A stretch of DNA of 64,000 bases, from assembly GCF_045037415.1 (NCBI RefSeq), contig NZ_CP173438.1; one strand, 5' to 3'. The position numbers are program-made. Origin of the DNA: Escherichia coli. Lineage in GTDB: Bacteria; Pseudomonadota; Gammaproteobacteria; Enterobacterales; Enterobacteriaceae. Shown here in pieces: positions 47,301 through 50,300 of this stretch. Within the stretch, counting starts at the first letter, position 1. Every line of letters begins with the position of its first letter.

Positions 47301-50300
47301 CGCAGCTGCATGCGGAAGCATATGAATGGGCGAAGAAAATTTCTGAACATCTGCTGCCTCGTACCCGCGCGTATGCGGAGATCTGGCTCGATCAGGAAAA
47401 AGTCGCCACTACTGATGAAGAGCCGATCCTTGGTCAGACCTACCTGCCGCGTAAGTTCAAAACCACGGTAGTGATCCCGCCGCAGAACGATATCGATCTG
47501 CACGCCAACGACATGAACTTCGTGGCGATCGCCGAAAACGGCAAGCTGGTGGGCTTTAACCTGCTGGTGGGCGGTGGGCTTTCCATCGAACACGGCAACA
47601 AGAAAACCTACGCCCGCACGGCGAGTGAGTTTGGCTATCTGCCGCTGGAGCATACGCTGGCGGTGGCGGAAGCCGTCGTGACAACTCAGCGTGACTGGGG
47701 TAACCGAACCGATCGTAAAAATGCCAAAACCAAATACACGCTGGAGCGCGTAGGGGTTGAGACGTTTAAAGCGGAAGTTGAACGTCGCGCGGGGATCAAA
47801 TTCGAGCCGATTCGCCCGTATGAGTTTACCGGACGCGGCGATCGTATTGGCTGGGTTAAGGGCATTGATGATAACTGGCACCTGACGCTGTTTATCGAAA
47901 ATGGTCGAATTCTTGATTATCCGGGGCGCCCGCTGAAAACCGGCTTGCTGGAGATCGCGAAGATCCACAAAGGTGATTTCCGCATTACGGCGAACCAGAA
48001 TCTGATCATCGCCGGCGTGCCGGAAAGCGAGAAAGCGAAGATCGAGAAGATCGCCAAAGAAAGCGGGTTAATGAATGCCGTCACGCCGCAGCGTGAAAAC
48101 TCAATGGCCTGCGTGTCATTCCCGACTTGCCCGCTGGCGATGGCGGAAGCGGAGCGTTTCCTGCCGTCTTTTATCGACAACATCGATAATTTAATGGCGA
48201 AACATGGTGTCAGCGATGAGCATATCGTGATGCGTGTAACAGGCTGCCCGAACGGTTGTGGTCGCGCGATGCTGGCGGAAGTGGGTCTGGTGGGGAAAGC
48301 GCCGGGTCGCTACAACCTGCATCTTGGCGGCAACCGCATTGGGACACGTATCCCACGGATGTATAAAGAAAACATCACCGAGCCGGAAATCCTGGCGTCG
48401 CTTGATGAACTGATAGGGCGCTGGGCGAAAGAGCGCGAAGCGGGTGAAGGCTTCGGCGACTTTACGGTGCGTGCGGGCATCATTCGCCCGGTGCTCGATC
48501 CGGCGCGCGATTTGTGGGATTAACCATCAGCCCGGTCTTGTAGGCCTGATAAGACGTGTGAGCGTTGCATCAGGCAAGGCAAACAGTGAGGAACTTATGT
48601 CCAAACTCGATCTAAACGCCCTGAACGAACTGCCAAAGGTAGACCGGATTCTGGCGCTGGCGGAAACTAACGCCCAACTGGAAAAACTGGACGCTGAAGG
48701 CCGCGTAGCCTGGGCGCTGGATAATCTGCCCGGTGAATATGTACTTTCTTCCAGCTTTGGCATTCAGGCGGCGGTGAGCCTGCATCTGGTGAATCAGATT
48801 CGCCCGGATATTCCAGTGATCCTCACCGATACCGGCTATCTGTTCCCGGAAACCTACCGCTTTATTGACGAGTTAACGGACAAACTCAAGCTCAACCTGA
48901 AAGTGTATCGTGCTACCGAAAGCGCCGCCTGGCAGGAAGCACGCTACGGCAAACTGTGGGAGCAGGGCGTTGAAGGCATTGAAAAGTACAATGACATCAA
49001 CAAAGTCGAACCGATGAACCGGGCGCTGAAAGAACTGAATGCGCAAACCTGGTTTGCTGGCCTGCGCCGTGAACAATCCGGCAGCCGCGCCAATTTACCG
49101 GTGCTGGCAATTCAGCGTGGCGTATTTAAAGTGCTGCCGATTATCGACTGGGATAACCGAACTATTTATCAGTACCTGCAAAAACATGGCCTGAAATATC
49201 ACCCATTATGGGATGAAGGATATTTATCGGTGGGCGATACCCATACAACCCGTAAATGGGAACCCGGCATGGCGGAAGAAGAAACGCGTTTCTTTGGCTT
49301 AAAAAGGGAATGTGGATTACACGAAGGGTAAATATTGCCGGATAAATTAAACGCCTCTGTCAGAAATGATGGAGGCGTTTTTATTTTTTGCGAGCAGCAT
49401 TCCGGCATTTAAAGGTGAACATCGCAGGGAAAATTAACAGGTATAGAATGGCATTGGGTGCTTGAGGCTGTCTGGCGTTAAGCATTCGCAAGGTTCCAGA
49501 TGGACAAAAGCCCCAGGCGATATTTCTATCAACCTGAGGCTCGCGTTCGAACGTAGCAATTCGGATGTTAGTCTCTTCTTTGCAGGGAGGCAAGACATGC
49601 TGACAAAATATGCCCTTGTGGCAATCATCGTACTGTGTTGTACAGTACTGGGATTCACGTTGATGGTAGGCGACTCGTTGTGTGAGTTGAGTATCAGAGA
49701 ACGTGGTATGGAGTTTAAGGCAGTTCTCGCTTACGAATCGAAGAAGTAGCCACCACGCGGGGTAAAACCCCGCGTACTGAATTGTGATGGTTTGGCCTCC
49801 TGCACCCCTTTTTTATACTCTGTTTCTGGTGGCATTGATTTCCTGCAGGCAAGGGAGTAATCATTTCAAACCCATTAAGATGCCTTCGCCAGCTCCTTCA
49901 CCAACGGTAGCATTATCCGCATAACATCACGGCAGCGACGTTCTATTCTTCCAGGAAGTGCCTTATCAATATGCTGTTGATTATCCAGTCTTACGTCATG
50001 CCAGCTATTTCCCGCAGGGAATGCGGCTGTTTTTGCTCGTTGCTGATAACCATCCTTATTGCCAAGATTCCAGTTAGTCGCTTCCACCGAAAGTACAGCA
50101 ATACCGGCTTTGTCGAATATTTCTGCGTCATTACAACACCCGGTGCCTTTCGGATAGTTTTTATTCAAACCTGGATTTGTGGTGGCGGCAATTCCATGGC
50201 TGCGGGCAATTGCCAGCGCCCGGTCGCGCGTTAATTTCCTTACTGCTTCAGGGGTTTTTACACCGCTGTTGAAATACAATTTATCGCCAACAATTAAGTT

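Follow-up and report, generated by a model that had tools for sequence, protein, structure and literature searches.

The systems closest to the locus considered here are hok/sok (parB) of plasmid R1 with its IncF relatives flm and srn, the chromosomal hokB/sokB of Escherichia coli K-12 and, nearest of all, hokX/sokX. The last is the name used for a module beside cysH (PMC7232551, PMC3903273, PMC12736100), which has been described by Almendros (2014), by Bustamante (2020) and in a 2025 UPEC CRISPR survey. Hok of R1 is no longer translated when the start codon of mok is mutated (PMC9841398), and four of the five hok loci of K-12 are reported to be inactive, with hokB the exception (PMC12214031). 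A recent survey of Hok diversity expressly left mok unanalysed (bioRxiv 10.1101/2025.08.07.668861).

Our window, a 64,000-nucleotide stretch of an E. coli contig (NZ_CP173438.1), carries next to cysH a chromosomal hok/sok-type type I toxin-antitoxin module that is, with near certainty, hokX/sokX. It lies immediately downstream of cysH and upstream of iap, the position by which we recognize orthologues (upstream of cas3 or iap), in the arrangement described for hok-5 of AIEC strain NRG857c (PMC7232551). Its leader is 91.5% identical to the cysH-cas3 spacer of K-12. The counterpart in E. coli SK1144 is identical in DNA (100%) over the 543 nt used as query (49332-49874), with the same cysH-hok-iap-cysD layout and the same annotated protein, WP_000956458.1, which PGAP labels "Hok/Gef family protein" and which is also common to O157:H7. 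Nothing of substance sets the locus apart from other copies of hokX/sokX; the present allele represents the intact, IS-free, cas-less arrangement. Because such copies are annotated in thousands of RefSeq genomes and have been published, the locus is no discovery and carries little weight as one. It is ordinary, save for one feature: the usual upstream mok start codon is missing. As a whole, we think it fairly probable that this is an intact module in a strain without cas genes, with an R1-like mechanism that we propose by homology. Every element named in the initial annotation lies where it had been placed, the GGGAGG Shine-Dalgarno included. The parts of the module and its upstream boundary are the following.

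49349-49380, plus strand: intrinsic terminator of cysH, a 14-bp stem then a T-run right after the cysH stop (49331); upstream boundary, outside the module.
49444-49449, plus strand: putative -10 box (TAGAAT) of the hok mRNA promoter, read from the sequence 6 nt upstream of G49456; the -35 is weak.
49456-49814, plus strand: predicted full-length hokX mRNA, about 359 nt, with its 5' end set at position 1 of the Rfam RF01794 match and its 3' end at the T-run after the fbi stem.
49456-49469, plus strand: tac, 5' element predicted to pair with fbi in the full-length mRNA (folds, duplex energy).
49478-49487, plus strand: predicted partner of tac in the nascent or truncated mRNA, giving a metastable 5' hairpin (folds of 49456-49560 and of truncated forms).
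49504-49558, minus strand: predicted SokX RNA, about 55 nt; 12 unpaired nt at the 5' end are followed by a long hairpin and a U-run.
49509-49517, plus strand: ucb, predicted to pair, when the mRNA is full-length, with the GAGG region of the leader (49509-49512 with 49538-49541; 49514-49517 with 49533-49536).
49536-49541, plus strand: GAGGCU, where R1-type hok, hokB and hokC, by alignment, have the mok Shine-Dalgarno.
49543-49568, plus strand: predicted Sok-target hairpin of the truncated mRNA (stem 49543-49551 with 49560-49568; loop 49552-49559).
49565-49593, minus strand: putative sokX promoter, -35 TTGCCT (49593-49588), 17-nt spacer, -10 TAACAT (49570-49565) (sequence and conservation).
49570-49575, plus strand: dcb, which pairs with GAGGCU in the fold of the truncated mRNA.
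49585-49590, plus strand: hok Shine-Dalgarno GGGAGG, 6 nt before the ATG.
49597-49749, plus strand: hokX toxin ORF, 50 codons from ATG 49597 plus the stop TAG at 49747-49749 (Pfam, PGAP, dN/dS).
49732-49735, plus strand: TACG at Tyr46, the family motif for TadA A-to-I editing (Tyr to Cys), in a predicted loop.
49755-49775, plus strand: stable G+C hairpin at which the processed mRNA presumably ends; also a hot spot for IS186/IS421 insertion (folds; compensatory changes at the stem base).
49794-49807, plus strand: fbi, the fold-back inhibitory element (folds, duplex energy).
49809-49814, plus strand: T6 run ending the hok transcript.

The ORF had been read as a Hok/Gef-family toxin, and profile searches agree: Pfam PF01848 (HOK_GEF) matches residues 5-46 of the peptide over model positions 1-42 of 42 (E 6.3e-10). 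The NCBIfam Hok family models also match, all under their curated cut-offs; the best is the HokA equivalog NF007290, whose 53 bits fall short of the curated cut-off of 89, so the peptide is not HokA. A PDB sequence search returned no match. Family peptides are recognized by Cys14, by Cys or an editable Tyr at positions 29 and 46 and by an AYES-like C terminus (PMC5630033, PMC12214031), and HokX, at about 50 residues, has an N-terminal hydrophobic helix, Cys14, Cys29 (SLCEL), Tyr46 and an AYES-like C-terminal motif. Homologues conserve both cysteines (Cys14, Cys29) and the editable Tyr46 (TACG), although two of them have TGC at the Tyr46 codon; editing at position 46 has been reported for hokC, hokD and hokE (PMC5630033). 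The peptide shares 21 of 52 positions with R1-type Hok, including the SLCE and AYES motifs, and only 16 of 50 residues with HokB, which has Tyr29 and Cys46 where HokX has Cys29 and Tyr46. HokX is thus a 50-residue peptide of the Hok/Gef type, predicted from its family to sit in the membrane, depolarize it and kill.

Upstream of the ORF, Rfam RF01794 matches the leader (49456-49612) at 104.3 bits (gathering score 59) over model positions 1-157 of 157, and four E. coli alleles do not differ in the putative hok promoter region (GGTATAGAATGGC). The near-perfect complementarity that had been noted between the mRNA 5' end and a 3' element ahead of a T-run amounts to 11 of 13 positions (GGGTGCTTGAGGC, 49456-49468, against GCCTCCTGCACCC, 49795-49807), with a 2-nt internal mismatch. 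The proposed fold-back is likewise recovered by RNA folding: in the minimum free energy fold of 49456-49814/49815, 49456-49461 pairs with 49802-49807 and 49464-49469 with 49794-49799, and the 359-nt mRNA model has a whole-molecule z-score of -4.05. The tac/fbi duplex alone is worth -24.1 kcal/mol, compared with -13.7 for the best internal 30-nt window, and was equalled by none of 200 shuffles. In the RNAalifold consensus the GAGGC/GCCUC half of this stem was not recovered because the 3' region aligns poorly; we therefore scored its conservation by per-locus duplex energies, by which fbi is the best partner of the mRNA 5' end in 49 of 51 homologues. Together these models support an R1-style fold-back closing the full-length mRNA.

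The inner elements of the leader behave similarly in silico. Across the 51 homologues the consensus structure contains 20 pairs with compensatory changes; the Sok-target stem has them in 8-22 homologues, and the dcb pair at alignment columns 90/129 changes from AU to GC in seven. The unpaired probability of the Sok-target loop rises from 0.36 in the full-length mRNA to 0.79-0.99 in truncated models. The folds thus predict both the switch between ucb/SD and SD/dcb pairing and the exposure of the target hairpin after 3' truncation. Accessibility of the hok Shine-Dalgarno is flat in the thermodynamic model (0.46 full-length versus 0.43-0.45 truncated), so the model leaves the step that licenses translation unexplained.

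All named RNA elements of R1 hok/sok and of flm and srn (tac, fbi, ucb, SD-dcb stem, Sok-target hairpin and 3' hairpin) can be located in hokX, and in both R1 and the present locus the -35 of the antisense gene lies over the hok Shine-Dalgarno. Unlike those plasmid systems, hokX is chromosomal, lacks a mok start and has an mRNA of about 359 nt. Between GGGTGC and the hok ATG, the leaders of hokB and hokX match in 104 of 154 aligned columns, the GAGGC, AGCAATTC and TTAG..CTCTT blocks among them, and the two loci have the same tac, 3' hairpin and GCACC core of fbi. From GAGG to the hok ATG, the hokX leader is 8 nt shorter than that of hokC. A tblastn search of phages with HokB found no match.

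On the opposite strand, a promoter had been proposed for a Sok-like RNA. A generic sigma-70 and terminator scan picked up the cysH terminator but missed the promoters of hok and sok, which score under its threshold (8/12 for sokX); we therefore turned to conservation. The sokX -35 hexamer and the TA..AT of its -10 are invariant across 51 homologous loci, which argues for the proposed promoter. The predicted SokX, with both ends set by promoter geometry and the U-run, folds at -24.3 kcal/mol (z -3.27). At the sequence level it appears to be built like Sok: it overlaps the leader, begins with a single-stranded tail and closes with a terminator hairpin. Transcripts from this region were detected as sok_15/sokX in RNA-seq of EDL933 (PMC5331693).

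By homology with R1 hok/sok, the module would work as follows. A weak promoter would yield a stable mRNA of about 359 nt, closed by pairing of tac with fbi and so inaccessible to Sok. Slow 3' trimming to the G+C hairpin would remove fbi, the 5' end would refold with GAGGCU paired to dcb, and the loop at 49552-49559 would be offered to SokX from the opposite strand. The Sok-hok duplex would then be destroyed (by RNase III in R1). Once the short-lived Sok falls, HokX would be made and the inner membrane depolarized.

In R1 this scheme depends on mok, and it is here that hokX departs from it. As the initial annotation had observed, no canonical ATG or GTG opens the hok frame upstream of hokX; the only candidates are TTG 49462, CTG 49468, ATT 49522, ATC 49528 and CTG 49534, and no ATG, GTG or TTG occurs 4-12 nt after the leader GAGG. 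At the place where R1-type hok, hokB and hokC have the mok ATG, 7-8 nt after GAGG (GAGGCCAACGA-ATG in hokB), hokX has TCG (49546-49548), so no mok frame begins there and runs over the hok start. The mok ATG is replaced by TCG or CCG, and the mok start is missing in 42 of 50 related loci. Two upstream frames were considered and rejected, the first as a gene and the second as a stand-in for mok. The 95-aa in-frame ORF from TTG 49462 would begin 6 nt from the predicted mRNA 5' end, within the tac stem and without a Shine-Dalgarno; the frame from ATG 49500 (18 codons, stop at 49554) could not couple to hok, as 43 nt separate its end from the hok ATG. With no mok start in the Escherichia leader, translation of Hok must use its own GGAGG site, which is strong and nearly invariant, or rely on some other coupling.

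We tentatively propose the first of these: hokX of Escherichia and of most of its Enterobacteriaceae clade may be a working hok/sok without mok, in which the toxin is translated directly from GGAGG and SokX, still covering the vacated mok initiation region, controls it only through mRNA decay or refolding. If this is true, the R1 rule that mok must be translated would have a natural exception in hokX. The pairing of a mok-less start with purifying selection on the toxin ORF also poses a small question for specialists in type I toxin-antitoxin systems.

The same facts might instead describe a true hokX/sokX homologue that has fallen translationally silent, with Hok synthesis switched off by loss of the mok start and the RNA pair persisting through drift, structural constraint on the RNA or some role of Sok. 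The replacement of the mok ATG by TCG or CCG, the need for that start in R1 and the reported inactivity of every chromosomal hok locus of K-12 except hokB all fit such a relic. So does the state of other strains: of E. coli genomes, about 15% have an IS in the 3' hairpin and 22% are without the ORF, while K-12 retains the leader alone up to the hok ATG, with sokX (b4700) and its promoter, and has lost the ORF. Against it stand the hok Shine-Dalgarno and ATG, nearly invariant across 51 loci (GGAGGCAA is retained in 50, with GCAGGCAA in the other, L049), and an ORF free of stops and frameshifts in 54 loci from many genera. The dN/dS ratio, a rough guide only because RNA structure also constrains synonymous sites, is 0.03-0.35 against 54 homologues from the whole clade and about 0-0.14 among the mok-less Escherichia and Pseudocitrobacter copies, pairs of which differ at 3-8 synonymous and 0-2 non-synonymous positions. 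By this comparison the toxin ORF is under purifying selection, mok-less copies included. We consider a silent relic unlikely, and hokX/sokX probably still works as a toxin system.

Less probable again is that a shorter frame stands in for mok. AUG 49565 opens 12 codons whose stop (TGA, 49601-49603) overlaps the hok AUG in AUGCUGA. Translation of this frame could make the hok initiation region accessible, the role that mok plays in R1, where mok need only be translated as far as the region of the hok start (PMC9841398). An ATG at -32, -33 or -36 occurs in 44 of 50 loci, and the upstream ATG frames end at +4 or read in frame into hok, L054 alone stopping at -18. This ATG, however, coincides on the opposite strand with positions 4-6 of the Sok -10 box, in which TA..AT is invariant and the G is changed in 6 of 51 loci, a pattern that fits a promoter and not a start codon. 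Moreover, no Shine-Dalgarno precedes AUG 49565, which is fully paired in the truncated-mRNA ensemble (unpaired probability 0.0-0.13). We consider this coupling improbable.

That a chance ORF merely happens to lie between chance complementary stretches, with no toxin-antitoxin locus at all, has nothing but the small size of the ORF in its favour and is refuted by Pfam and Rfam matches above threshold, homologues with conserved structure at 56 loci, compensatory changes and the shuffle test.

Returning to the module as hokX/sokX, its surroundings correct one impression. The initial annotation placed it exactly where the type I-E CRISPR-cas module lies in K-12-like genomes. The cysH-iap gap is indeed the site, but the two are not alternatives: hokX/sokX directly follows cysH both with cas genes (O157:H7 DEC4E; strain T2) and without them (SK1144), so it is no replacement for CRISPR-Cas. 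A search of the window for the type I-E repeat found none. Comparison of the interval across E. coli genomes, which had also been suggested, confirmed the place beside cysH in every region inspected, and most E. coli have the module there: the ORF was found in 4,220 of 5,426 complete genomes, 5,425 of which match some part of the query, and none of 6,109 matched places was on a plasmid. The module is useful for marking the cysH-iap (CRISPR-I) region: whether it is intact, interrupted by an IS in the 3' hairpin or cut down to the sokX leader records how CRISPR-Cas was gained and lost in E. coli. BL21, for example, has an IS junction in the 3' hairpin. Where the I-E module is present it sits between hok and iap, and homology of cas-bearing strains to the window stops at 49815 (query position 484).

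The gene order around hokX is cysI, cysH, a 543-nt gap, iap, cysD and cysN, and all the gap elements listed by the initial annotation were recovered, at the following positions:

49331, stop of cysH
49456-49468, 5' element GGGTGCTTGAGGC
49585-49590, GGGAGG
49593-49565, minus strand, TTGCCT-N17-TAACAT
49597-49749, plus strand, hok ORF of 50 codons
49795-49807, 3' element GCCTCCTGCACCC, then six T
49875-50912, minus strand, iap

The proposal that the ORF encodes a Hok/Gef toxin is borne out by Pfam, as the 50-aa product matches the whole length of the HOK_GEF model (E 6.3e-10). 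Rfam model RF01794 aligns end-to-end with 49456-49612 at 104 bits (gathering score, 59), and this match begins exactly at the mRNA 5' end that had been predicted. RF01794 is named 'sok antitoxin', but because its match lies on the hok-sense strand and runs from the mRNA 5' end to just beyond the hok start, the model describes the hok sense leader and not the antisense RNA. The Pfam, Rfam, folding and end-duplex results show that the elements in the gap are more than chance. Genome matches and explicit literature descriptions of the site identify the locus as the already known hokX/sokX, and thus not as a new system. Every testable feature of the Hok/Gef family and of the hokX/sokX orthologous group was found; the mok frame, an upstream frame overlapping the hok start and one of the elements that define R1-type regulation, was looked for and is absent. 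Given these family and orthologue features and the missing frame, we file the locus as hokX/sokX, which by analogy would work like plasmid R1 hok/sok save for the translational-coupling step. HokX shares 32-40% identity with HokB, HokC and R1-type Hok, and scores under the cut-off of the NCBIfam HokA model.

The locus is found in most E. coli. When 5426 complete E. coli genomes were searched by megablast with 49332-49874, part of the query was found in 5425, chromosomal every time. SK1144 is 100% identical over the query with the same cysJIH-hok-iap-cysDN layout, and PGAP annotates its ORF as 'Hok/Gef family protein' (WP_000956458.1), a protein also encoded between cysH and cas3 in O157:H7 DEC4E and strain T2. 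A second search of these genomes with the ORF and 3' end (49597-49815) found the hokX ORF in 4220 (78%), contiguous with the 3' fbi/terminator in 3417 (63%). Of the 49332-49874 query, K-12 retains just the first 268 nt, the leader through the hok ATG, after which come unrelated sequence and then cas3. Almendros et al. 2014 count 'the hok sok system' among the components of the CRISPR-I locus, found in every strain other than those carrying the E2 variant of cas (PMC3903273), and Bustamante et al. explicitly describe the same locus (PMC7232551). A 2025 UPEC survey places hok and sokX beside cysH in 90% of strains, the remainder having sokX alone, as in MG1655 (PMC12736100).

Modelling agrees with the suggested fold-back of the mRNA. 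The 360-nt RNA has a fold z-score of -4.05, and its predicted 5'-3' duplex (-24.1 kcal/mol, compared with -13.7 for the best internal partner) beats 200 of 200 shuffles. In the full-length fold (49456-49814), the tac/fbi stem that joins the mRNA ends pairs 49456-61 with 49802-07 and 49464-69 with 49794-99, the leader GAGG region (49533-41) pairs with an upstream box (49509-17), and 49755-63 forms a strong 3' hairpin with 49767-75. Truncated models, which remove the last 25-35 nt of the inferred RNA to mimic R1 3' trimming, pair the 5' end with 49478-87 and GAGGCU (49536-41) with AGUCUC (49570-75), and form a new hairpin (49543-51 with 49560-68) whose loop, 49552-59, rises in unpaired probability from 0.36 to 0.79-0.99. 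This refolding, seen in silico only, follows the R1 scheme of tac/fbi, ucb, dcb and Sok-target elements (summarized in PMC9841398). If the R1 paradigm applies, hokX would likewise be transcribed, its mRNA processed, RNase III cleavage would occur and the product would kill.

The antisense promoter is also present as proposed, with its -35 (plus-strand AGGCAA) and the TA..AT of its -10 invariant across 51 distinct aligned mRNAs drawn from 56 related loci in GTDB genomes. Promoter geometry predicts a Sok start near 49558 on the minus strand, and the predicted RNA of ~55 nt would begin with a single-stranded tail of 12 nt, followed by a long hairpin and a U-run (-24.3 kcal/mol, z -3.27). In the same alignment the 5' end GGGTGC is invariant and the 3' core GCACC nearly so, and in 49 of 51 loci the 5' end has its best pairing partner at the 3' end. 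Compensatory changes occur at 20 of the pairs called by RNAalifold, which fall in the 5' stem-loop, dcb stem, target hairpin and 3' hairpin.

The absence of an upstream ATG or GTG in the hok frame, noted at the outset, is real and general: 42 of 50 analysable HokX-clade loci, including all Escherichia and Pseudocitrobacter copies, lack the mok ATG. The eight with an ATG there are from Klebsiella, Kluyvera and Enterobacter, and include both Kluyvera loci syntenic with cysH and iap (L022, L025). In R1-type IncFII hok, K-12 hokC and K-12 hokB, an ATG 7-8 nt past the leader GAGG opens a frame that crosses the hok start. The leader of hokX is closely similar to that of hokB (104 of 154 aligned columns match) but has TCG (49546-48) at the position of hokB's mok ATG, and is 8 nt shorter than that of hokC. 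Because the ORF is intact in 54 loci and dN/dS is low (0-0.14 among mok-less Escherichia and Pseudocitrobacter copies; 0.03-0.35 overall), sequence comparison points to continued synthesis of the peptide. A substitute start at AUG 49565, opening a 12-codon frame to a TGA (49601-03) that overlaps the hok AUG, was considered and is disfavoured: this AUG is complementary to part of the Sok -10, its G is changed in 6 of 51 loci, it has no Shine-Dalgarno ahead of it, and in the truncated model all of it is base-paired. The modelled accessibility of hok's own Shine-Dalgarno does not change between full-length and truncated RNAs. The mok start is required in R1, as mutagenesis shows (PMC9841398), and mok was deliberately excluded from analysis in a 2026 preprint on Hok diversity (bioRxiv 10.1101/2025.08.07.668861). 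We tentatively raise the possibility that hok systems of the HokX clade naturally do without mok.

The initial annotation placed the locus exactly where the type I-E CRISPR-cas module lies. The cysH-iap interval is indeed shared, but the site is not: hok is cysH-proximal in all arrangements, and cas genes and array, where present, lie between it and iap. No type I-E repeat occurs in the whole window (1-64000, up to 3 mismatches allowed), so this strain has neither the iap-proximal array nor nearby orphan arrays. Pseudocitrobacter, Kluyvera, Lelliottia and one Enterobacteriaceae isolate (flanks of L012-L014, L022, L023, L025 and L042) likewise have a cas-less cysH-hok(-iap) arrangement, which suggests that hok has been at the cysH site for longer than the Escherichia type I-E module. 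In strain T2 (L003 3481-6177), cas3 runs on the other strand and its end, 64 nt past the hok stop, overlaps the 3' UTR of hok, whereas in DEC4E (L006 2108 onward) it is co-directional and begins ~190 nt downstream of that stop; either an inversion or another layout of the cas genes may account for this.

The G+C hairpin of the hok 3' UTR (49755-49775) is an insertion hot spot for IS186/IS421. BL21(DE3) carries an IS421/IS186-type element inside this hairpin, with the IS end ATAAGCGCTAACTTAAGGG (L007 2925-2960, 4255-4330), and ~800 of the 5426 E. coli genomes break within it, at position 174 of the 49597-49815 query (49770). K-12 hokC has the IS end ATAAGCGCTAACTTAAGGG within its own 3' hairpin (L004 1190-1260). 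The far side of the BL21 element abuts CRISPR repeats instead of the remaining hok 3' end, implying that the cas genes were lost in a deletion associated with the IS.

HokX Tyr46 is encoded by TAC within TACG (49732-49735; A49733) in a predicted loop, the position at which TadA edits hokC, hokD and hokE mRNAs to Cys (PMC5630033). A-to-I editing of HokX is therefore predicted, at a site out of reach of K-12-based studies. Two homologues, from Lelliottia (L042) and Pseudocitrobacter (L060), have a hard-coded TGC at this position. Elsewhere in the window lies an ordinary CsrB small RNA (7677-8036, plus strand; Rfam RF00018, 383 bits).
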